Source of the DNA: a virus
Length of the DNA: 64,000 nt
Reading direction: 5' to 3' (one strand)
Virus genome (UHGV): UHGV-0253196
Below, in pieces: positions 2,926-40,897 of the stretch (the first letter of the stretch is position 1; the number at the start of each line of letters is the position of its first letter). A program made the translations under genes and the position numbers. Under the pieces are notes generated by a model. That model was not told the DNA's origin. It was given only the letters and a program-made list of their open reading frames with translations, and searched no databases.

Positions 2926-3861
2926 ATGGCAACATGGAGAACAGACTGTACGTTCATTACTAATGAAGGGTTAGCTTTAATAGCAAAACTCGCGTTAGGT
3001 GACAAGCAGTTAGAATTAACAAGGTCTGCCTTTGGTAGTGGTAGAGTACCAGAAGCTATGCTGGCAAGACAGACAGCCTTAACAGACGAGGTGAAAAACC
3101 TCGTCTTCACTGATAAGAGAGTGGTAGATAACAGCACCGTGATACAGACACAGATAACCAATGAAGGTGTTACCGCACAGACAAACATCAACCAGTTAGG
3201 GTATTTTGCAAATGACCCGGATAAAGGTGAGATACTCTATCTGATAACACAGTGTGACCAGGACACAGCAGATAAGTTACCAGCGTATGCAGATACTCCT
3301 ACGGTGCTGTCCTACAGCATACAGTTATTCCACGAAAATGGTGTGCAGATAAATGCTACTGTAGACCTTGCCGGGTATGTAAATAATATGCGGTTTAATG
3401 AGTATAAAGCCGAGGTAACAGAGACACTTAATAACTACGTGTTGAAGACCGGGACGCTTAACCTTAACACCGTGGAGTTTAGTATGGCTTCAAGTAAGGT
3501 TCTGCCCGTATCCGCAGAAACGTTACCAAATATTATCGGTAAGATAACAAAATACCTCCATGATTGGGAGCGGTCATATTTAATGACCCTACCAGCCTCT
3601 GGCTGGGCCGGTTCCGCTGATTCCGGGTGGACACAGCGGATAAGGGTAAGTGGTATAGATAACACCACAGATGAATATAAATTCTACAGGACAATACCAG
3701 ATGACGTGAACACACCGGCACTTGCAAAGACCTATAAGAAGTCTGCCGGGTTTGTTGATGAAATGTACCCTGTGAACGTGAGTGGCACAGTGTATGTAGA
3801 AGCAAAGTGTTGGAACAAAGTTCCTACAGTAAACCTTGTGTTTACACTAGAAGGGAGGTAA
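2926..3861 (+). CDS. hypothetical tail-associated structural protein
   Basis: RBS AAAGGAG precedes the start. It lies between two fibre-like genes. Confidence 0.4.
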   Translation: MATWRTDCTFITNEGLALIAKLALGDKQLELTRSAFGSGRVPEAMLARQTALTDEVKNLVFTDKRVVDNSTVIQTQITNEGVTAQTNINQLGYFANDPDKGEILYLITQCDQDTADKLPAYADTPTVLSYSIQLFHENGVQINATVDLAGYVNNMRFNEYKAEVTETLNNYVLKTGTLNLNTVEFSMASSKVLPVSAETLPNIIGKITKYLHDWERSYLMTLPASGWAGSADSGWTQRIRVSGIDNTTDEYKFYRTIPDDVNTPALAKTYKKSAGFVDEMYPVNVSGTVYVEAKCWNKVPTVNLVFTLEGR

Positions 3862-30699: not shown

Positions 30700-31086
30700 A
30701 TGAAAACGAGTATTACAAAAATGTTCACCTTTGAAGCGGCACACAGATTACCTAACTATGTAGGTGCGTGCGCTAATCTTCACGGTCATTCTTATAAACT
30801 TGCCGTGACTGTCACCACAGATAAGCCTTTAAATAAAGACCGCAACGCAACGGGTATGATAATGGATTTTAAAGTCCTCAAAGACATTGTGAACCGAAAG
30901 GTTGTCGGCCCGTTAGACCATTCACTGTTAAATGACTTTTACTACAACCCCACCGCCGAGATTATGGTAGAAGACTTTGCCGCGAATATACAGGCAGGAC
31001 TTGATGATTTTGATGAAAGTGTGTACGTTTCAAACATTAAGTTGTGGGAGACCGAAGACAGCTATGCAGAGTGGTCGAGAGACTAG
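30700..31086 (+). CDS. queD: 6-carboxy-5,6,7,8-tetrahydropterin synthase QueD
   Basis: PTPS-fold signature FTFEAAHRLPNY...CANLHGHSY. 128 aa. Confidence 0.8.
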   Translation: MKTSITKMFTFEAAHRLPNYVGACANLHGHSYKLAVTVTTDKPLNKDRNATGMIMDFKVLKDIVNRKVVGPLDHSLLNDFYYNPTAEIMVEDFAANIQAGLDDFDESVYVSNIKLWETEDSYAEWSRD

Positions 31087-31103
31087 AGAAAGAGGTGTTG
31101 TAT

Positions 31104-31745
31104 ATGATGTTCTATCATGAGATATTTTTATCTATACAGGGTGAATCCAGTGACGCAGGACGCCCTTGTATATTTGTAAGAATGTACGGCTGTCCGATTG
31201 GGTGTTCATATTGCGACCAGCCCCAGGAAAAGAGTGACAGAAAGCGTATTGGTGTTGACACCATGTTATCAAAGATATACGCATTGAAGTGTAAGAACGT
31301 GTGCTTCACAGGTGGAGAACCTATGATTTACGCGCAGGAACTTATACCCGTGTTTATCGAACTTACCGACCGGGGCTACACCGTGTCCGTAGAGACCAGC
31401 GGGTGTGTAGAGTTAGAGTCTTACCCCGTGAGAAGGTCATTTAAGTACGTGATGGATATTAAATGCCCCAGTAGTGAGGTGTCAGAGAAGAACATTTACA
31501 GAAACCTTGCGTACTTACAGCCACATGACGAGGTGAAGTTTGTCGTGGCAGACGAGAAGGACTACCAATTTGCCCGTAACGTGTTAAAGCGTTATAATAC
31601 CAGTGCGCAAATTTTATTTAGTCCCATGTTTGACACAGACGGCAAAGCAGTGATAGGACAAGAACTTGTGAACTGGATTTTGAGAGACAAGCTGTTTAAT
31701 GCCCGGGTTCAGATTCAGTTACACAAAATTCTGTCAGTGAGGTAA
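31104..31745 (+). CDS. queE: 7-carboxy-7-deazaguanine synthase QueE (radical SAM)
   Basis: IFLSIQGESSDAGRPCIFVRMYGCPIGCSYCD is a QueE-type N-terminus with a CxxxCxxC cluster. GGEP motif. RBS AGAGGTG. Confidence 0.8.
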   Translation: MMFYHEIFLSIQGESSDAGRPCIFVRMYGCPIGCSYCDQPQEKSDRKRIGVDTMLSKIYALKCKNVCFTGGEPMIYAQELIPVFIELTDRGYTVSVETSGCVELESYPVRRSFKYVMDIKCPSSEVSEKNIYRNLAYLQPHDEVKFVVADEKDYQFARNVLKRYNTSAQILFSPMFDTDGKAVIGQELVNWILRDKLFNARVQIQLHKILSVR

Positions 31746-31749
31746 ACAC

Positions 31750-32472
31750 ATGATTGGAAAACGTAACCCAGAAAAAGACCAAGACTATTACAATGGTCTG
31801 ATTGAGAGTATATGGTATAATCTAGTAGAGGTTAAATCAGAACTTACAGGTATTAAAGAGGAAGTAAACAAAGACCATCCATTTAAAGAAGACCCAGGAC
31901 ACCTTAGTGCTGAAAGATTACCCGTAAAGAAAAATACTATTAGGGAGCACTTAAAGGAGGGTTATCTTCCTAAAAGACCCGTTAAGGTGTTCAGTAACCG
32001 GGACGAAGCATATGATTGTTTATACTACTGGTTAGAGAAGTTATATCTTACCGATTGGGCCATAAAACTTAAATTCGTGCGGATAAATGAAGAACCACTT
32101 AATGACGAACAGTCTGGCGACGTACGCAGAGTATTTGAGCAGAAAGCGGCGATAATCACCCTTCCATTGCCAGACGATAACTTTCTTGACGCTTGCAAAA
32201 GCAGTGTTGCGAGAGTGGGCCACGAACAGTCTTTGGTGCATGAGTTATTGCACTTAAAGGAAGACCCTGTACAGTTTGTAGAAGATGGTGATTATACCGC
32301 CGGGTTCTATAACATACACAAACACAATGAAGTTGAAATGATGGCAAGAACACTGTTAATGGTGAAGTACAACTTATCGCCGTCTTACTTCAATAACGTA
32401 GACAGAAAGGAGAACGACAATGGCTTGTGGCACAAAGAAACCGAAGACACCGAAGAAACCCAAAAAGAATAA
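31750..32472 (+). CDS. hypothetical protein with an HExxH motif (HELLH)
   Basis: SLVHELLHL. It lies inside the deazaguanine cluster. Confidence 0.4.
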   Translation: MIGKRNPEKDQDYYNGLIESIWYNLVEVKSELTGIKEEVNKDHPFKEDPGHLSAERLPVKKNTIREHLKEGYLPKRPVKVFSNRDEAYDCLYYWLEKLYLTDWAIKLKFVRINEEPLNDEQSGDVRRVFEQKAAIITLPLPDDNFLDACKSSVARVGHEQSLVHELLHLKEDPVQFVEDGDYTAGFYNIHKHNEVEMMARTLLMVKYNLSPSYFNNVDRKENDNGLWHKETEDTEETQKE

Positions 32473-32487
32473 GAAGTAGGACAACCG

Positions 32488-32518
32488 AAGACCTGTGCTA
32501 ATAAAGACAGGTCTTTTC
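32488..32518 (+). terminator. stem-loop (AAGACCTGT..ACAGGTCTT followed by TT)
   Basis: Perfect 9-bp stem. Confidence 0.5.
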
Positions 32519-32520
32519 GT

Positions 32521-32847
32521 ATGAAAGGAATACATGACATGGGACAGATATCAAAATTAGCTGAAAATGCGTATGAAACCGCAGTTGCGCACGGTTGGTA
32601 TGACACACCAGTTTCGTTTGGTGAGGAAGTTGTGTTGTGTCACAGTGAGTTATCCGAAGCACTACAGGAGTTTAGAGTAGGAGGGTTTGGAACACGTAAA
32701 GACAAGATAACTGAGGAACTAGCAGACACAGTTATAAGGATTTTTACTCTAAGTTCAAGACACCAGCTTGACATTGAAGCGGCAATATTAAAGAAGATGG
32801 AAAAGAACAAAGACAGACCATACAGACATGGAGGAAAGTTACTATGA
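32521..32847 (+). CDS. MazG-like nucleoside triphosphate pyrophosphohydrolase (start may be ATG 32539)
   Basis: EExxE...EELAD motifs: CHSELSEALQEFR, EELADTVIRIF. Confidence 0.6.
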   Translation: MKGIHDMGQISKLAENAYETAVAHGWYDTPVSFGEEVVLCHSELSEALQEFRVGGFGTRKDKITEELADTVIRIFTLSSRHQLDIEAAILKKMEKNKDRPYRHGGKLL

Positions 32848-34559
32848 GTAAACCAGTTGTAGTATTAAATAGTGGAGGTTTTGACAGCACCGTATTGTTA
32901 CATTATGTAAAAGAGGTTGAAGAAGACAGTCTTGTATACTCACTGTTTTTTGAATACGGTCAGCGTTCCATGGAACAAGAAAGACGCTGTGCGCGTAAAA
33001 ACTCTGTAGACCTTGACGCGCAGTATATAGGTGTCAGTCTTCCAAAGATATACTGGACTGGCAGTGACTTCTATAATGAGGGAGGGTTTAAGGTAGACAA
33101 GCAGTATCTTGAAATGAGAAATTTAATTTTTCTGTCATATGCTCTTTCCTTTGCAGAGAGTGTAGGTGCAGAAAAGGTTTATCTTGCAGTGCTGAAATCA
33201 CACCACGGGTATCCAGACACATCACCTAGATTTATTAGTGCTATGAATGAGGTATCGAATATAATAGGTGTTAGTATTGAAGCACCATTTATAGAGAGTG
33301 ACAAATACAACCTTGTTGGTCTTGCTTACAAGTACGGCATTACTGAAAACGACTTTCACAGTTGTGATAAACCTACTACAGACGGGAAACCGTGTGGCGT
33401 GTGTGATGATTGTGAGGTAGTAAAAGAAATCATGTCCCAGTTAGAGTTAAAACACCCACGGGACGTAAAGTTTAGTCCAAGAGGAACACATGAACAGTAT
33501 GAGACCGTCTATAAAGAGTACCCGGTGAGTGAGTTAAGATTCACCATAAATAACAGGTGCCAGTTTAGTTGCGCTCATTGTTACTACGGATATGAGACTT
33601 CACACCGGGAAGACCTATCAGAGAAGGAACTTACTGAATTTGCTATCAGACTTCACAAGCAGTTTGGGTTTAAGAGTATTCACTATTGCGGCAAAGAACC
33701 TATGATTGATAGCGCGATATTTGATTCCATAAGGACACTTAGGAAGGTGTTACCCGTTGACATTGAATACAGTGTTGTAACAAACGGCTTAACTGTGACT
33801 GAATACTATGAGCAGTTAGTGAATGAAAGGTTGTTAGACAAGGTGTTCCTGTCCGTTGATGATATTGAGACAGTGACGGATAAAGAACAGAAGTTACGAA
33901 ACACCAGTAGGCATATATTAAATGCTATAGACTTCCTGGTTACGAATAAAGTTCCGTTACAAGTGTTTATTGACCTTCACAAAGGTAACTACAACTACAT
34001 CAATGAAATGTTGTATCAGTTAGTGAAGTTAGGTGTTAGAGAGTTTTTCGTCCGGGCAATAATGCCAATAGGTAACGCCGAAGACCTTGAACCTCTGTCC
34101 ATAGCAGAGATAGCGGAAGTGTACAGTAAACTTAAGAGGTTGACAAACTATTACCACACCACCGTTAAAGACTTTAAAGTACTTCTTACTTTAGGTAAAG
34201 ACGTTATAGTCCGTATGCAGGAGCGTGACATTGACGATATGACAAAAGACGAGGAAGACTTAATAGAAATGGTTGCAAAGTCTTTAGAGTATAACACAGA
34301 CGTTGTTGTGCCGGGAATGAGTATATACCCGGAGGAAGTTTGCACACAGTTTCTTGATACTCTTACCCTTACATCAGACGGGTATGTGTTAGGCTGTACT
34401 TCCGCTGTAAGCTGTAGTGAGTACTGGAAACACAGCGCGTTTGATATAAATACACCAGACGAGGACTTCAAGAATCGTTTGATTGAAGCAAGAAGTAAGG
34501 TGTTAGAGTATGACGGTGAAAATTGTCCATTTTCTTGTCCCAAAAGTATTGACATTTAA
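32844..34559 (+). CDS. queC: fusion protein: QueC (7-cyano-7-deazaguanine synthase) N-terminal domain plus a radical SAM domain with a SPASM/twitch-like C-terminal Cys cluster
   Basis: N-terminus has VVLNSGGFDST (PP-loop) and the QueC zinc motif CDKPTTDGKPCGVCDDC. Residues from about 225 onwards have CQFSCAHCYYG (Cx3Cx2C), GKEPM, and C-terminal GCTSAVSC...CPFSC. Confidence 0.7.
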   Translation: MSKPVVVLNSGGFDSTVLLHYVKEVEEDSLVYSLFFEYGQRSMEQERRCARKNSVDLDAQYIGVSLPKIYWTGSDFYNEGGFKVDKQYLEMRNLIFLSYALSFAESVGAEKVYLAVLKSHHGYPDTSPRFISAMNEVSNIIGVSIEAPFIESDKYNLVGLAYKYGITENDFHSCDKPTTDGKPCGVCDDCEVVKEIMSQLELKHPRDVKFSPRGTHEQYETVYKEYPVSELRFTINNRCQFSCAHCYYGYETSHREDLSEKELTEFAIRLHKQFGFKSIHYCGKEPMIDSAIFDSIRTLRKVLPVDIEYSVVTNGLTVTEYYEQLVNERLLDKVFLSVDDIETVTDKEQKLRNTSRHILNAIDFLVTNKVPLQVFIDLHKGNYNYINEMLYQLVKLGVREFFVRAIMPIGNAEDLEPLSIAEIAEVYSKLKRLTNYYHTTVKDFKVLLTLGKDVIVRMQERDIDDMTKDEEDLIEMVAKSLEYNTDVVVPGMSIYPEEVCTQFLDTLTLTSDGYVLGCTSAVSCSEYWKHSAFDINTPDEDFKNRLIEARSKVLEYDGENCPFSCPKSIDI

Positions 34560-34576
34560 TACTCATGGTGTATAAT
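34549..34576 (+). promoter_or_regulatory. sigma-A-type promoter TTGACA-16-TATAAT embedded in the 3' end of the queC-fusion gene
   Basis: Read directly from the sequence. A 6-bp hairpin (GTAGGT..ACCTAC) lies in the leader. Confidence 0.55.
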
Positions 34577-34665
34577 TGTATTCAGAGATTTAGGAATGGC
34601 GTAGGTCTTCCGTATTTACCTACAGCCTAGTCCCTTGCTCACAATACGATAAGGAGGTAAACACC

Positions 34666-34842
34666 ATGATGAATGTTTACGCAGAATCCCCCAAAGGTGG
34701 CGGGCGTGCCGCTGGTGGTAATGCACAGCAGACTGCACCCGCACCGACCAGAGGTGGAGTAAGAGCCACACTGGGTAGAGCGGCTACAGGTGCAAGAAAC
34801 GCGCTGAACAGGATTATTCGTCCCAGAGGACGTAACCGTTAA
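34666..34842 (+). CDS. small Gly/Ala/Arg-rich basic protein (58 aa), markedly GC-rich, not in the track
   Basis: Strong RBS AAGGAGGT lies 8 nt upstream of ATGATG. It has its own promoter and terminator. Confidence 0.4.
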   Translation: MMNVYAESPKGGGRAAGGNAQQTAPAPTRGGVRATLGRAATGARNALNRIIRPRGRNR

Positions 34843-34864
34843 TCAGTCCCGCACCAAGAAAGAG

Positions 34865-34898
34865 AGAAGTCCTAATAAACTGGGACTTCTTTTCTTTT
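34865..34898 (+). terminator. rho-independent terminator (AGAAGTCC..GGACTTCT followed by TTTCTTTT)
   Basis: Read directly from the sequence. Confidence 0.65.
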
Positions 34899-34944
34899 AC
34901 CCGGATTTATGTTATACTGTCTTAAAAAGAAAGGAGACAACACA

Positions 34945-35199
34945 ATGTATATTGAATCACCAAGAGACAAAGAAGGAGTTAGAGACTGGGAAGCAGAAGA
35001 AGACGCACAGGCTTTATTAAAAGCCCGCCAAATTAACTCAGACCCCGTGAGAAAAGCGAAAGCACAGGCGGTTATAAGGAGTACCCAGGCCACGTTACAA
35101 GGTGCGTTGACTGGGACACCTCCTGTAAACACACCGAGTTCAAGAAATAACCCCGCCACTATCGGACAGTTAAACATTCCCGGCAGAAACAAAAGATAA
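34945..35199 (+). CDS. hypothetical protein
   Basis: RBS AAAGGAGACA precedes ATG 34945. Confidence 0.4.
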   Translation: MYIESPRDKEGVRDWEAEEDAQALLKARQINSDPVRKAKAQAVIRSTQATLQGALTGTPPVNTPSSRNNPATIGQLNIPGRNKR

Positions 35200-35254
35200 C
35201 ACCAGAACACCACAAACACATTATATACTTACAGAAGACAGAAAGGAATCGCGC

Positions 35255-35806
35255 ATGAACGATAAATACAATTTGAGTTCAAAAGAGCAGGAGATAGCCA
35301 GCCATATAAAAGGTATAATGAGTTTGCTAGGTATTGAGGAAACACCATCAAACATAGACACCCCAAAGCGGATAGCGAAAATGTATAGCCGCGAAGTGTT
35401 TAGCAGTGAAGGTAAAGACCTAGCCGAACTTGACGCACAAATGACTACTTTCATTAACACGGATTTAAGTTCAATGCCCGTGACAATGACCGGGATTAAG
35501 TTTAGTTCCATGTGTGCACACCACTGGCTACCATTTTTCGGTGAAGTAGAGATAAGCTACACACCGTTTACCAAAGTGATTGGGTTGTCAAAACTGCCGC
35601 GAGTTGTGAAGTGGTTCAGTAAAAAGCCACAGACCCAGGAAGAAATGACGAAAGAGATAGGGAACTACTTAGCAGTGTTCCTTAATCCCCGTAAACTGTC
35701 CGTGAAGGTAACAGCATTGCATACTTGCGTAGCGTGTAGGGGAATTGAGAGCGTAGGGACAGAGACCATAACTGAATACAGATATAACAGAGGGGAAGAC
35801 GCTTAA
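35255..35806 (+). CDS. folE: GTP cyclohydrolase I FolE
   Basis: MCAHHWLPFFGEVEISYTP matches CEHHLVPF. GLSKLPRVVKWFSKKPQTQEEMT matches GLSKLxR...QERLT. Confidence 0.8.
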   Translation: MNDKYNLSSKEQEIASHIKGIMSLLGIEETPSNIDTPKRIAKMYSREVFSSEGKDLAELDAQMTTFINTDLSSMPVTMTGIKFSSMCAHHWLPFFGEVEISYTPFTKVIGLSKLPRVVKWFSKKPQTQEEMTKEIGNYLAVFLNPRKLSVKVTALHTCVACRGIESVGTETITEYRYNRGEDA

Positions 35807-35870
35807 CGGCGTCTTTTCTTTTGCGCGCAATATGATATAATAAGTACATAACTTATGAAAGAGGTGAACC

Positions 35871-36452
35871 ATGAAGGTAGCAATATTTAATGGCAGTTCA
35901 AGACAGCATAGTAACAGTGAACTAATCTCAGGTGAATTAAGACGTATATTTGAGCGTCTAGGGTATGACACCGTAGTGCTCAATGCAAGTGACATGACAG
36001 GCTGTAGACCATGTAATCAATGTGGATTCTGTAGTTCAGTAGGTAGCTGTATATATGAAAGAGATACTCTGGGACAACACCATATTAAATGTATATGGGC
36101 TAGTGACATATGGGTGATTGTAACACCTGTGTATTGCTTTTCCATGTCCCCGCCGACCTTGACGTTACTGTCCCGGTTTTATTCTTATGGCCCAGAAGTG
36201 TTGCAAGATAAAGTTGTGTCTTCTGTGATAGTAAGTGGCAGTAGCGGTAGATATGGTGGAAAGAGCCTTGTAAATGAATCCTTTAAGCGATACTTTGAAT
36301 ATACAGGTGCTAACTATACAAACAAGCCCATAGGTATCACTACAAACGACACCGTGTTAGAAGACCTGCATACACTTACACCACGGTTAAGACTATTTTG
36401 TAAAGACTTGATAAGGAGAGCGAAAAATGCTGAAAATAGTACCAAGGACTAA
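35871..36452 (+). CDS. iron-sulfur flavoprotein (NADPH-dependent FMN reductase fold with a compact Cx2Cx2Cx2C..C motif)
   Basis: MKVAIFNGSSRQHSNSE flavodoxin-like start. CRPCNQCGFCSSVGSC cluster. Confidence 0.55.
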   Translation: MKVAIFNGSSRQHSNSELISGELRRIFERLGYDTVVLNASDMTGCRPCNQCGFCSSVGSCIYERDTLGQHHIKCIWASDIWVIVTPVYCFSMSPPTLTLLSRFYSYGPEVLQDKVVSSVIVSGSSGRYGGKSLVNESFKRYFEYTGANYTNKPIGITTNDTVLEDLHTLTPRLRLFCKDLIRRAKNAENSTKD

Positions 36453-38595
36453 AAAGAAACCCGTACCAAAGAAAAAGGTTCCACCAAAAAAGAAGACCAC
36501 CACGCCCGTAGAGATAGACGAGACCCCGGAAGTAGAGGAAGAACCAAAAAAGAACTATAGTTCTCTGCATGATGTAATGGACACTAACAGACCTTTTAAG
36601 TTAGTGTTTTCTGGCGTTGAGAATGAAAGCTACTATGACATACTTTTTGATTGCGGCGTGCGTAGCTTTCTAATGTCCTATCACTATATCCAGAGCAAGC
36701 ACATTAAAATGCGTGATAGGTTTGATGGGACGGGTGTTAAACTGTTTATTGATAGTGGCGCGCATACATACCAGAATGACCCTAAATATCTGGAACTTCC
36801 GTTAGAGTATTGGGAGAAGCACTTGCAGAAGTACCTTAACTGGGTTGAGCGGAATAGAAAGTATATATTTGCCATAGCAAGTTTTGACTTTGAGAACATT
36901 GTAGGTGCAGACACAGTAGATAGGTGGAACCGAGAATACTTAGAACCGTTCATGTTGCGCACAGGTATACCAGTGTGTTTCGTGTGGCACCAAAATTCAA
37001 AGTATGACTGGGAGTTCTATTGCAAGCGTTATCCCTATGTGGGATTTTCGTCTGTCAATACAGAAGGTGAAGCCATAGAACTATCAGAGTATAAACAAAG
37101 ACTGAAAGTGGCAGAGAAGAACGAAGCACTTGTACACGGGTTCGGTATGACGCGTACAGGTATGTTGACTGAACTTCCCTTCTACACCTCAGATAGTACG
37201 ACATGGCTTGTGGGTTTGCAGTATGGGGAAATGAACTACTGGAATGGCACCAAAATGAACCGCCTTAAGAAAGACAAGTGGAAATCACCTGCTGTACTAT
37301 CAGAGTTTGAGAGAAGGTATAACTCAGACCAAACACTGTTAGAGCAGGAAGACATAACCGAGGTGATAAAAGTCAATGTGTTTGCTTTCCTTGACGCAGA
37401 GGATTATATCGTCACCAAGCTACGTTCTCAAATGTACTGGTTAAAAGCAAAGACAACTAAACGGGACGTGAATAACTTACCGCCAGACTTCTTTCCAGAC
37501 CCTGACATGGTGATGGTGTGTTTAGACGAAGGTGATAAAAGTGTAGTGTCATATGCTCAGAAATTTAATATCAACCCGGAATATGCTGACGCTGACTTTT
37601 TAGTGTGTTGTGCTACATTGTTCCTTAACTGGGATAACTCAATATACAGTGACTGTAAGGACATACTCATTGAGGACGAAGCAGTGATTAAATCCCTCCA
37701 TGACACACTGATAAACAGGATAGTCCCAGGTGTTGATGAAATGGTCGAAGACCTAACGCAGTTATTCAAAGAGTGCATAAGCGGCGAGAATGACAAGCTA
37801 TTACAGATAGGCACCAACTTTGACCGCGCACAGAAAGAGCGTGAACACTATATAGAGGAAGAAGACGAGTATGAGGAAGTAGAAGTATCAGAAGGTGAGA
37901 TAAGGGCCGCTGTGTATAACAACATTCCTAAAGACCGTCTTCTTACCGCAGGTGAAGATTCCGCGCCAGAGATTACGGAACTTGACGCAGAAATATTTAA
38001 CGGCACAGGTATAACACCACGTTTTGATGATAGAGGTAAATTCCTTAAAGGTGTTAGACAAGTAAAGAAACCAAAGTCCGTGTACAGTAAGAAGTTCCCT
38101 AAACTGGCGTGTGCTACGTGTTTCGCGGCAAGTACGTGTCCAGAATACAAAGACGGCTATGTGTGTGCTTATAATAAGCTGTTCAGCAACTATGACACAC
38201 GTAACATGGGTGACATTGTAGAAGCTATGCAATCCATGGCAAGTGTGAACATGGGCCGCCTACAGAAAGCAATGCTGTTTGAGACACTAGGTGGTGCATT
38301 AGACCCACAGGTATCACAGCTTATTAATCAGAACGTCACTTTGCTGAACAACCTTAAGTCAATGTATGAGAACACCAACGCAATGGTGCTTAAACAGACC
38401 CGCAATATAAGACAGGACGGAAGTGTAGAAGAATCTGTGCAAGTAACCAATCCTCAGAGCATGGGTATTATGGAACAGTTACTATCAAAGATAATGCCTA
38501 GTAGTGATAAAGAAGACGAGGTTATAGTTGAATCAGAGGACGTAACACCCAAAAAGAAAAGCAGTGCATATGCAGACCTGGAAGAAGACGATTAA
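36427..38595 (+). CDS. dpdA: DpdA-like tRNA-guanine-transglycosylase-fold protein (putative DNA 7-deazaguanine transglycosylase) with a lysine-rich N-terminus and a roughly 400-aa C-terminal extension
   Basis: LFIDSGAHTYQ is compatible with the TGT DSGGFQ Asp motif. HGFGMTRTGMLTELPFYTSDSTTW fits GxGxT...DxFDC. It is co-located with folE, queDEC. A late Cys cluster CATCFAASTC...C is present. Confidence 0.5.
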   Translation: MLKIVPRTKKKPVPKKKVPPKKKTTTPVEIDETPEVEEEPKKNYSSLHDVMDTNRPFKLVFSGVENESYYDILFDCGVRSFLMSYHYIQSKHIKMRDRFDGTGVKLFIDSGAHTYQNDPKYLELPLEYWEKHLQKYLNWVERNRKYIFAIASFDFENIVGADTVDRWNREYLEPFMLRTGIPVCFVWHQNSKYDWEFYCKRYPYVGFSSVNTEGEAIELSEYKQRLKVAEKNEALVHGFGMTRTGMLTELPFYTSDSTTWLVGLQYGEMNYWNGTKMNRLKKDKWKSPAVLSEFERRYNSDQTLLEQEDITEVIKVNVFAFLDAEDYIVTKLRSQMYWLKAKTTKRDVNNLPPDFFPDPDMVMVCLDEGDKSVVSYAQKFNINPEYADADFLVCCATLFLNWDNSIYSDCKDILIEDEAVIKSLHDTLINRIVPGVDEMVEDLTQLFKECISGENDKLLQIGTNFDRAQKEREHYIEEEDEYEEVEVSEGEIRAAVYNNIPKDRLLTAGEDSAPEITELDAEIFNGTGITPRFDDRGKFLKGVRQVKKPKSVYSKKFPKLACATCFAASTCPEYKDGYVCAYNKLFSNYDTRNMGDIVEAMQSMASVNMGRLQKAMLFETLGGALDPQVSQLINQNVTLLNNLKSMYENTNAMVLKQTRNIRQDGSVEESVQVTNPQSMGIMEQLLSKIMPSSDKEDEVIVESEDVTPKKKSSAYADLEEDD

Positions 38596-38626: not shown

Positions 38627-38654
38627 TTGACAGTTTCCTTATTAAAGCTATAAT
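38627..38654 (+). promoter_or_regulatory. sigma-A-type promoter TTGACA-16-TATAAT
   Basis: Read directly from the sequence. Confidence 0.6.
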
Positions 38655-39438: not shown

Positions 39439-39467
39439 TTGACAGCATTTACCATATGTGCTACACT
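39439..39467 (+). promoter_or_regulatory. sigma-A-type promoter TTGACA-17-TACACT
   Basis: Read directly from the sequence. Confidence 0.5.
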
Positions 39468-39514
39468 GTACCAGTATCACTATTAAACAACCACATACAA
39501 AAGGAGGAAAAGAA

Positions 39515-40195
39515 ATGGCAGTAATCAGAACAAGTACAGGTGAGAAGCCCAAGAGAGGAGAGCTGTACTACGTCTATCCGCAGATGGCGTGGGACAATGA
39601 TGATTCTGAGAAAGGGACAAGCAGAACTGATGTAAAGAGTGGGAGACCCGCTATCATTATTGGTAATGACGCTGGGAATGGTGCTTCTGATATGTGTGTT
39701 ATTGCGTGGCTTACACGTCAAGACAAAGCACCTTTACCAGAACACGTTACAGTACCTTCCGGCCCCGCCAAAGAATCAACTATGTTGCTGGAACACCCCA
39801 TCACCGTGTCTCAATCGCGTTTAGGTGAAAAGATTAGCACCTGTTCCACACCATTAATGAAGAAAGTTGATTCTGCATTGCTGGTATCTATAGGTATATG
39901 TGATACCTTACAAGACGCTGAATATCTGTTAAAATGTCGTGCTATGGTGTATGACTTGCAAGCGCAGGTAGATACATATAAGCACGAACTTAAAGAGAAA
40001 GACGCGGAAATTAAATCATTAAAAGATAAACTTGAAGTTAGTGACACCAATATAAGGGATTTAAGTAACAGGTTAGAGTGTGCAGAAAATCAGAACACCT
40101 ATAACCCAAGTGATTTAAAACTTGAATTGGTGTTAAATGAGCGGGATTATTTGAGGGACCTTGTTAAGCTGTCAATGACAGGAGGTATTATCTAA
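39515..40195 (+). CDS. MazF/PemK-like (CcdB/MazF fold) domain protein with a C-terminal coiled coil
   Basis: GELYYVYP, KSGRPAIIIGND, MCVIAWLTRQ, PEHVTVP and ESTMLLEHPITVSQSRLGEKI parallel the MazF/PemK motifs GDIVxVDF, RPAVVLS, VVVPLTS, HVxL and IDKxRL. Confidence 0.45.
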   Translation: MAVIRTSTGEKPKRGELYYVYPQMAWDNDDSEKGTSRTDVKSGRPAIIIGNDAGNGASDMCVIAWLTRQDKAPLPEHVTVPSGPAKESTMLLEHPITVSQSRLGEKISTCSTPLMKKVDSALLVSIGICDTLQDAEYLLKCRAMVYDLQAQVDTYKHELKEKDAEIKSLKDKLEVSDTNIRDLSNRLECAENQNTYNPSDLKLELVLNERDYLRDLVKLSMTGGII

Positions 40196-40256: not shown

Positions 40257-40562
40257 ATGACAAATAAACAGCGAGAGGATTATGCCCGTTATATTTCACG
40301 ATTGACAATACAAGAATTGGGCGAAGAATGGGACAGCGTAACAGAAGACATTTTAAGAAAGGCACACAAGAAGCGCAAGACCAATGATAAAATTGTAATT
40401 GAATACCCATGGGTAAAGAAGCAGGAAGAAACACCATCTAAAAAGGTGTTGAAAGTCAGAAAAAAGAAAAAACATAAACCTTCTTTGTGTGCGAAAAAGA
40501 AGGGAAAGAAGAAATGCAAAAGATTTATACCCCCCGTACCAGGGAGAAAGCGCAACAATTAA
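40257..40562 (+). CDS. hypothetical protein with a highly basic Lys-rich C-terminus
   Basis: RBS AAAGGGGG precedes ATG 40257. Confidence 0.45.
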   Translation: MTNKQREDYARYISRLTIQELGEEWDSVTEDILRKAHKKRKTNDKIVIEYPWVKKQEETPSKKVLKVRKKKKHKPSLCAKKKGKKKCKRFIPPVPGRKRNN

Positions 40563-40759
40563 TATCGTATTACATTTCAAAGTGGGAACAGTCTAATCAC
40601 CCGGTAGTCATTAAAGACGCAGACTTAGAAGACCTTGTAAAAGCTATTTACAGACGGGCCGCGAACACAAAGACTACAGAACGTGAAGCAGTATGGGACT
40701 ATTTGACAGAGTTCTACACAGATACACCAGAAGATGATGATTGGTTCATTGAAGATTAA
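40514..40759 (+). CDS. hypothetical acidic protein (overlaps the upstream gene in another frame)
   Basis: ATG 40514. The overlap makes this one uncertain. Confidence 0.35.
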   Translation: MQKIYTPRTREKAQQLISYYISKWEQSNHPVVIKDADLEDLVKAIYRRAANTKTTEREAVWDYLTEFYTDTPEDDDWFIED

Positions 40760-40897
40760 GTAGTTCATGTAGGATATGCACAGATGGAAGTTTGTGTGTA
40801 TCCTATTTTTGTGTTACAATACTTTGTAGAAACACCACACCGTTACATTAAGGGTCATTAGTGACCCACCATGAAATACATATAAGGAGGCCATATA

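Follow-up and report, generated by a model that had tools for sequence, protein, structure and literature searches.

The 64,000-nucleotide stretch of the virus genome UHGV-0253196 analysed here (the window, meaning that whole stretch) contains at positions 39515-40195 (+) an intact open reading frame (ORF) of 226 codons, with its ATG at 39515 and its stop codon ending at 40195. The product is a 226-aa MazF-like protein, in which residues 1-130 are almost certainly a genuine MazF-type domain, with both the sequence signature and the predicted fold of MazF toxins. A helical extension follows this domain, and the gene belongs to a large phage family that looks to be without a partner gene. On balance we propose, with about as much confidence as doubt, that the protein is an active, phage-expressed, sequence-specific MazF endoribonuclease that works during infection, is dimerised or regulated through its C-terminal helices and serves the turnover of host or early mRNA.

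MazF domain and catalytic residues

All five motifs of the MazF/PemK order that an earlier note on this DNA had read in the N-terminal 130 residues are present (G15ELYYV, R44PAIIIGND, V62IAWLTRQ, H77VTVP and E93HPITVSQSRLGEKI), and the database matches lie far beyond chance. When the protein was compared with Pfam, PemK_toxin (PF02452) was matched over aa 40-124 with 54.7 bits against a gathering cut-off of 23.1 (E = 1.3e-14); the same family was matched by 60 of the 60 family members scanned. PHROG 1936 ('MazF-like growth inhibitor') was matched with an E-value of 6.8e-19, and here aa 9-197 aligned with profile positions 6-174 of 188, part of the extension included. MazF/PemK chains in PDB from S. 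aureus, B. subtilis, B. anthracis and B. cereus were matched by HMMER over residues 42-133 with E-values of 7e-12 to 6e-11.

An AlphaFold2 (AF2) monomer model was built on a family alignment of 125 sequences. Its mean predicted local distance difference test score (pLDDT) was 82.5, with values of about 85-93 in the MazF domain, and its predicted template modelling score (pTM) was 0.62. When this model was searched against PDB using Foldseek, the top 50 matches were all MazF-family toxins, including the MoxT/PemK homologue 4HKE (E-values 5e-10 to 2e-6; target-normalised TM-scores, TMt, 0.68-0.89). The best matches were B. subtilis YdcE (1NE8), S. aureus MazF and the B. subtilis MazF-MazE complex, with TMt of 0.78-0.89 and identities of 31-35 %. 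The SH3-like MazF barrel, whose absence had been named beforehand as refuting the assignment, is thus found in the model.

Mutagenesis has identified Arg25 and Thr48 as essential catalytic residues of Bacillus MazF (PMC7354611). In the HMMER alignments to the PDB chains, R44 of the window protein aligns to Arg25 and T67 to Thr48, with no gap between them. In the family alignments, of 60, 125 and 102 sequences, the column aligned with R44 contains Arg in every sequence and that aligned with T67 contains Thr in all or nearly all of them, while the overall identity of the aligned members to the window protein is only about 25-35 %. The earlier note had suggested a host-shutoff RNase, a toxin mimic or an antitoxin-titrating decoy as possible roles; because these two columns are strictly conserved at such low identity, the alignments favour an active RNase rather than an inactive mimic or decoy.

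C-terminal helical extension

The earlier note had described a coiled coil of 110 aa appended to the domain. A helical extension with regular heptads is indeed found, but it comprises the 96 residues C-terminal to residue 130 and consists of one heptad helix (aa 132-193) and then another helix (aa 198-222). Between residues 138 and 187 of the long helix, one heptad core position (a or d) is occupied by L, V, V, L, I, L, I and L, and the other by C, L, Y, K, L, S, L and A. Coiled-coil Pfam families were matched weakly by this helix. It is separated from the second amphipathic segment by the break NQNTYNPSD, and the protein ends in LKLELVLNERDYLRDLVKLSMTGGII. As predicted from the heptads and the AF2 model, a fair description of the extension is a coiled coil with roughly eight heptads, followed by a second helix that is shorter.

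Distribution of the family and its terminal helix

Close homologues of the window protein (82-97 % identity) are rare; only four were found in a collection of 5.8 billion proteins, all in the same gene context on metagenomic contigs of 81-84 kb. One of them is the UniProt/BFVD entry A0A8S5QRG6, which is 95 % identical and annotated as 'PemK-like protein [Myoviridae sp. ctgXL3]'. The earlier note had treated the protein as unusual; this view did not survive, as the protein belongs to the large catalogued PHROG 1936 and its 95 %-identical relative already bears a PemK-like annotation. Since automatic annotation and PHROGs had already recognised the protein as MazF-like, the gene itself is no discovery. 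Among 50,697 deposited phages, no close DNA relative was found by megablast, and tblastn against the same set matched the MazF domain only, at 31-38 % identity.

The wider family comprises 1787 cluster representatives at E ≤ 1e-3, and at least 472 loci in IMG/VR were confirmed by domain-based patterns. Members were found in the annotated temperate phages FP_Lagaffe (gp50) and FP_Brigit (gp83), in each case as a solitary copy among genes of the replication region, and in prophages of Clostridia such as [Clostridium] symbiosum and Blautia. Among the 153 top representatives, a sample biased by the use of the full-length query, 131 have at least 40 aa beyond the MazF domain. The extensions are very diverse in their length and composition; some are short and disordered linkers, others long coiled coils, but most of them end in a conserved amphipathic helix with the consensus h-x-h-x-x-ERDxYKxLYExLLxxh. 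This hallmark (ERDxYKxLYExLL) was defined from our own family alignments and is not a published criterion. Its strict core, E[RK][DNE]x[YF][KR], was found within the C-terminal 45 residues in 147 of 268 proteins, compared with 0.66 expected from shuffling. It was also present in 63 of the 93 MazF ORFs from the fetched loci and in FP_Lagaffe gp50.

In the case of the window protein, the resemblance to this helix is weak. The segment compared with it was NERDYLRDLVKLSM. A position-specific scoring matrix of the family terminal helix gave a score of -16.6, where members score at least 31 and the null (shuffles or linker windows) lies at -46 ± 11 (p about 0.006). A hidden Markov model of the helix that was built without the window protein found no significant match in it (2.4 bits, a score equalled by 3.6 % of shuffles). 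The canonical tail motif was accordingly not established by either profile, and DTYKH at aa 153-157, considered as an alternative match, was weak and likewise not significant. To judge from these alignments, the window protein appears to be a divergent member that has the architecture of the family in common, but not demonstrably its terminal motif.

The tail of the family was also compared with known antitoxins. Tyr61 of B. subtilis MazE is a reported contact with MazF (PMC7354611), and the family motif ERDLYKxLY resembles NRDLMRRGY61 of that protein. However, homology of the tail to the MazF-binding part of MazE was not supported by profile-profile comparison, and the resemblance was dropped as evidence. 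When the tail profile and the full-length family profile were aligned with a 36-sequence EndoAI/MazE profile, the hhalign probability was below 1 %, and the tail profile against the single B. subtilis MazE sequence gave 0.3 %. The sole PDB match of the tail profile was the MafA leucine zipper (ERDLYKEKYEKL; E = 0.009), which we read as compatibility with a coiled coil and not as homology.

Several variants of the architecture were observed within the family. In one sub-lineage of 17 contigs (L061, L063, L064, L068, L070, L071, L073, L074, L077, L082, L083, L086, L087, L090, L091, L093 and L094), a poly-G tract of 7-11 G lies exactly at the junction of the MazF domain and the tail, at about position 3331 of these loci (535 in L074 and 3328 in L068). 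With G9 the tail is in frame (eight contigs), with G8 or G11 an out-of-frame basic tail results (five contigs), and with G7 or G10 a stop codon follows right after the tract (four contigs). The tract has the appearance of a switch for the tail, phase-variable or slippery, with homopolymer sequencing error as an alternative explanation; it is absent from the window gene. Two or more MazF domains per polypeptide were found in P0006, P0010, P0014, P0008 and P0020, including proteins of 287 and 266 aa with two matched stretches and one of 471 aa with four; these may be single-chain MazF 'dimers'. An N-terminal helix-turn-helix (HTH) domain of the XRE, HTH_38 or sigma-70 region 4 type is fused to MazF in three or four of 60 members (P0051, P0128, P0143 and P0037), which also bear the tail. 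A short N-terminal motif, NG-SGYYDPTAYEAI, precedes the MazF domain in P0011, P0032, P0052, P0060 and P0146.

In the literature searched, phage MazF-like proteins with C-terminal extensions were mentioned at the level of annotation only, and no functional study of such proteins was found. Nor was one found of the solitary tail-bearing architecture as a property of the family, of the conserved terminal helix or of the poly-G junction.

Search for a partner antitoxin gene

An adjacent small antitoxin gene of the MazE/EndoAI/PemI type, which in a MazEF operon usually lies upstream and overlaps the toxin gene, was not found at the window locus. The upstream neighbour (orf247) and the two downstream ORFs (orf101 and orf81) had no match among the Pfam, PHROG, NCBIfam and PADLOC models, the last two giving only coiled-coil noise. 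As far as these models can tell, the statement of the earlier note that no obvious antitoxin sits upstream was thus borne out.

When two upstream and two downstream same-strand ORFs were surveyed at 91 loci, with the MazF genes grouped into 21 clusters at 70 % identity, no neighbour gene family was found to span more than three of the 21 clusters. The immediate neighbours encode 42 to 495 aa and their spacing is variable. No MazE, ribbon-helix-helix (RHH) or AbrB antitoxin domain was present in the precomputed Pfam annotations of the neighbours, prophage contexts included. Because the neighbours are not conserved over the 21 clusters and lack these antitoxin domains, the family looks genuinely solitary, although fast-evolving antitoxins could escape such a survey.

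Proposed role and alternative explanations

Under the proposal of an active phage endoribonuclease, the MazF-like protein would be made during infection, for which the consensus promoter at 38627, the strong Shine-Dalgarno sequence, the terminator-like site at 40769 and the virulent type of the gene content provide a suitable context. It would dimerise as other MazF proteins do, with the heptad helix probably forming a parallel coiled-coil stalk and the C-terminal helices stabilising or regulating the dimer. The dimer would then cut single-stranded RNA at a short sequence motif, and this cleavage would degrade host transcripts and possibly the early transcripts of the phage as well. The outcome would be host takeover or mRNA turnover as with T4 RegB, and not a two-gene addiction module.

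Several points weigh against this proposal. The loop that contributes to the binding of RNA and antitoxin in characterised MazF proteins lies between β1 and β2. In the window protein it is about nine residues longer and acidic (WDNDDSE), the GSEQ motif of the family is replaced, and the AF2 model has pLDDT below 50 at residues 26-39. Because this loop differs, the substrate specificity of Bacillus MazF is not transferable to the window protein, whose own specificity, and even activity, could be different. Bacillus and Staphylococcus MazF cut at UACAU. On the coding strand of the window this word occurs 51 times compared with 65 expected (z = -2.2), which is a mild depletion, and the site of the window protein itself may be another one. 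The coiled-coil dimer is inferred from the heptads and a monomer model only, and an antitoxin among the unannotated neighbours could have gone unrecognised.

This last point leads to a classical type II toxin-antitoxin (TA) pair, in which orf247, orf101 or orf81 would be the unrecognised antitoxin of an addiction or exclusion module. Antitoxins diverge fast and are often missed by profile searches, the four ORFs, with a consensus promoter before them and a terminator-like hairpin after them, apparently make up a single unit, and they are co-conserved in the related contigs L001-L005. Some antitoxins have RNA-mimicking acidic and aromatic C-termini, of which the tail of orf81 (TPEDDDWFIED) is reminiscent. 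We nevertheless regard such a pair as rather improbable, since none of the neighbours matches the models searched and no neighbour family is common across the wider MazF-like family. In addition, mazE genes are short and translationally coupled to the toxin gene, whereas orf247 encodes 247 aa and lies 78 nt from the toxin gene with a promoter-like site between them. Another explanation concerns host TA systems: the protein might act as an anti-defence decoy or modulator that titrates a MazE-type antitoxin of the host or forms heterodimers with host MazF, its nuclease role being secondary. Manipulation of host MazEF by phages is real: in Bacillus phage phi3T, AimX and YosL bind and inactivate MazF, and phi3T_93 binds MazE, releasing MazF (PMC10769878). 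Cross-interaction is also conceivable at 31-35 % identity between the domain and Firmicute MazF. However, the family has kept its catalytic Arg and Thr, and the RNA-binding motifs around them, invariant at about 30 % identity among its members, which points to selection for enzyme activity, and titration of MazE would free the host toxin with no obvious gain for a lytic phage. We therefore hold a decoy to be very unlikely.

The remaining explanation is a single-chain TA, in which the C-terminal helices occlude the RNA groove of the MazF dimer, in cis or across the dimer. This is doubtful in our judgement, and so, to the same degree, are its release by a trigger (a partner protein, proteolytic cleavage or an altered oligomeric state) and the toggling of tail control in some lineages by the hypermutable poly-G tract at the junction. 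Such a design would fit a family in which no separate antitoxin gene is conserved anywhere and nearly all members have a strongly conserved amphipathic terminal helix tethered by a linker of highly variable length and composition, the strict motif being found in the proportion given above. It would also fit the few members that add an N-terminal HTH DNA-binding domain, the other half of a typical antitoxin, and the sub-lineage in which the poly-G tract puts the tail in or out of frame. A further point in its favour is the AF2 model of P0189, a short member of 145 aa, in which the tail helix reaches a pLDDT of 91 despite a linker at 51. However, tail-less and frameshifted variants make up 9 of the 17 contigs of that sub-lineage; being so common, they indicate that the tail is not obviously essential. 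Since pTM is only 0.65 for P0189 and 0.62 for the window protein, the monomer models suggest that the tail is not placed on the domain with confidence. Mean-field direct-coupling analysis of 183 unique sequences, too shallow at an effective number (Meff) of 120, ranked the best pairs between the two modules 15-19, which is at noise level, so no domain-tail coupling stands out. The tail profile shows no homology to EndoAI/MazE or to any antitoxin in PDB. As for the window protein itself, the canonical terminal motif was not established in its tail, which follows a rigid helix of 62 residues; if this helix is continuous, the terminal helix would be held far from its own MazF domain and could not reach it.

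Genomic context and other features of the window

In order, the window carries tail fibres, an endolysin, a replication block, a 7-deazaguanine block, orf247 with the MazF-like gene and small ORFs, and a DNA ligase with a terminase-like protein. The replication block comprises helicases, a DnaB-like helicase, a primase, a single-stranded DNA-binding (SSB)-like protein, a DNA polymerase, a UvsX-like recombinase and a Cas4-like exonuclease. The gene content, which includes a DNA polymerase, helicases and a primase of the phage's own, is of the virulent type. The MazF-like gene is part of a co-directional block 3' of the genes for replication and for 7-deazaguanine DNA modification, and many consecutive small ORFs without an assigned function follow it. 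The substantial ORFs of the window are all on the + strand, and no tRNA gene was found in it. GC skew is positive in every 2-kb bin except 46-48 kb, and the cumulative skew climbs almost steadily over the window. The features discussed are listed in Table 1.

Table 1 Positions of the MazF-like gene, its parts and neighbouring features in the window
Feature	Position	Strand	Basis or remark
Complete coding sequence of the 226-aa MazF-like protein with C-terminal helical extension	39515..40195	+	ORF; Pfam, PHROG and PDB matches
Shine-Dalgarno sequence AAAGGAGG, 7 nt 5' of the ATG	39500..39507	+	Read from the sequence; graded strong
MazF/PemK endoribonuclease domain, aa 1-130	39515..39904	+	Pfam PF02452; PDB alignments; AF2/Foldseek
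Enlarged acidic β1-β2 loop, aa 22-43, PQMAWDNDDSEKGTSRTDVKSG	39578..39643	+	Family alignment; low confidence in AF2
R44 codon, equivalent of catalytic Arg25	39644..39646	+	Alignments; role from PMC7354611
T67 codon, equivalent of catalytic Thr48	39713..39715	+	Alignments; role from PMC7354611
Long α-helix, aa 132-193, about 8 heptads (aa 135-190), candidate dimeric coiled coil	39908..40093	+	Heptads; AF2 pLDDT 93-97
Second helix, aa 198-222, LKLELVLNERDYLRDLVKLSMTG	40106..40180	+	AF2 pLDDT about 81-85; weak counterpart of the family terminal helix
Perfect sigma-70/sigma-A-like promoter TTGACA-N16-TATAAT	38627..38654	+	12/12 match; between the DpdA-like gene and orf247
orf247, upstream neighbour, 247 aa	38693..39436	+	Conserved at this place within the same phage lineage only
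Second promoter-like site TTGACA-17-TACACT, TG before the -10	39439..39467	+	10/12, consensus match only; immediately 5' of the MazF-like gene
orf101, downstream neighbour, very basic poly-lysine/arginine C-terminal half	40257..40562	+	ORF; context
orf81, overlaps the end of orf101, acidic and aromatic C-terminus TPEDDDWFIED	40514..40759	+	ORF; context
Terminator-like hairpin, 17-pair stem then T-run TTTTGTGTTA	40769..40806	+	Pattern match only
PTPS/QueD	30700-31086	+	7-deazaguanine module
QueE-like	31044-31745	+	7-deazaguanine module
571-aa QueC fused to a radical-SAM domain	32844-34559	+	7-deazaguanine module
GTP cyclohydrolase I (FolE)	35255-35806	+	7-deazaguanine module
FMN-reductase-like gene	35871-36452	+	7-deazaguanine module
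722-aa DpdA/TGT-like transglycosylase	36427-38595	+	7-deazaguanine module

Perfect TTGACA-N16-TATAAT sites occur only twice in the 64 kb (34549-34576 and 38627-38654), compared with 0.11 expected from shuffles. Both coincide with gene boundaries, within the deazaguanine block or beyond its end, a placement that suggests transcription units dependent on host sigma factors. The promoter at 38627 would be the putative start, and the hairpin at 40769 a possible end, of a unit formed by orf247, the MazF-like gene, orf101 and orf81. It is plausible that this unit depends on the host polymerase and is of the early or middle class, in line with the early-gene region named in the earlier note. The small ORFs orf101 and orf81 overlap and are of opposite charge character (40257-40759); orf81 is, speculatively, a candidate trans-acting partner.

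The 7-deazaguanine DNA-modification module at 30700-38595 looks complete, and the C-terminal part of its DpdA-like protein shows a weak match to a small-terminase PHROG. Although the phage probably modifies its own DNA, restriction-type words are strongly avoided on both strands of the window. GGACC and GGTCC were observed 3 and 0 times (about 55 and 32 expected), GCAGC 0 times (32 expected), GAGTC 5 times (29 expected) and CCCGGG twice (28 expected). On the coding strand, GAGGAG (1 observed, 31 expected) and GAAGAG (3 observed, 36 expected) are depleted. These strongly avoided words are restriction-type sites with no relation to MazF. Self-protection of the phage through avoidance of UACAU was considered and found unconvincing, as the coding-strand depletion of that word is mild only.

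Significance

Most work on MazF toxins treats them as two-gene modules of bacteria; recently they have also been examined as systems that act against phages or are manipulated by them. The window gene comes from a very large set of phage MazF homologues in which the catalytic residues are retained, a partner gene is missing and an unstudied helical C-terminal module is present. If these proteins are active RNases, phages of gut Firmicutes, and phages related to them, would have in them a widespread means of host takeover or mRNA turnover, and the set would also be a source of new sequence-specific RNases. If the tail is an internal antitoxin or switch, MazF would join the short list of single-chain TAs, and the safe carriage of a toxin by a phage would be explained; the family would then provide the first example of a phage-borne MazF that is self-contained and can dispense with an antitoxin gene. 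For the window gene itself the gain is modest, as it is a divergent member of a family that has already been catalogued and automatically annotated.

Comparison with known systems

Firmicute MazF/EndoA proteins (1NE8, 4MDX and 4ME7; S. aureus 4MZM; B. cereus 7BXY) have the same fold and the same catalytic Arg and Thr as the window protein, and the core motifs RPxxxxxND ... T ... LPxHV ... LxE are held in common. Unlike them, the window protein has 96 extra C-terminal residues with two helices and an acidic loop longer by about nine residues. Its gene has no adjacent EndoAI/MazE-type gene and is carried by a phage of roughly 82 kb with its own replication genes, not by a chromosomal TA operon. 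In phage phi3T, the proteins AimX, YosL and phi3T_93 make MazF activity a lever for the phage during infection and in lysis-lysogeny decisions; phi3T is described as encoding inhibitors and releasers of host MazF and not a MazF homologue of its own (PMC10769878).

The closest relatives in architecture are the members of PHROG 1936 (FP_Lagaffe gp50, FP_Brigit gp83 and A0A8S5QRG6), which likewise occur in phages or prophages as solitary genes, co-directional with early or replication genes, and consist of a MazF domain and a C-terminal extension. Typical members end in ERDxYKxLYExLL, a helix that the window protein resembles weakly, and their linker is short or disordered where the window protein has one long heptad helix. 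Most of the characterised carriers are temperate siphoviruses of Clostridia, unlike the window phage.

The fused single-polypeptide TAs CapRel-SJ46 and EzeT are host defence genes, and in CapRel the C-terminal antitoxin region serves as a regulatory switch. Like the window protein, they have a toxin domain and an appended region in one chain and no separate antitoxin gene. The window gene differs in being phage-borne and in its toxin family, and its tail shows no homology to MazE and no confident docking on the toxin domain. T4 RegB is a sequence-specific endoribonuclease of a phage, with a RelE/YoeB-like fold and without an antitoxin, which inactivates mRNAs during infection. The MazF fold and the coiled-coil extension of the window protein are both absent from RegB, and no sequence relationship between the two is expected. 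By analogy of function, however, RegB would be the best counterpart for the role that we propose for the window protein.

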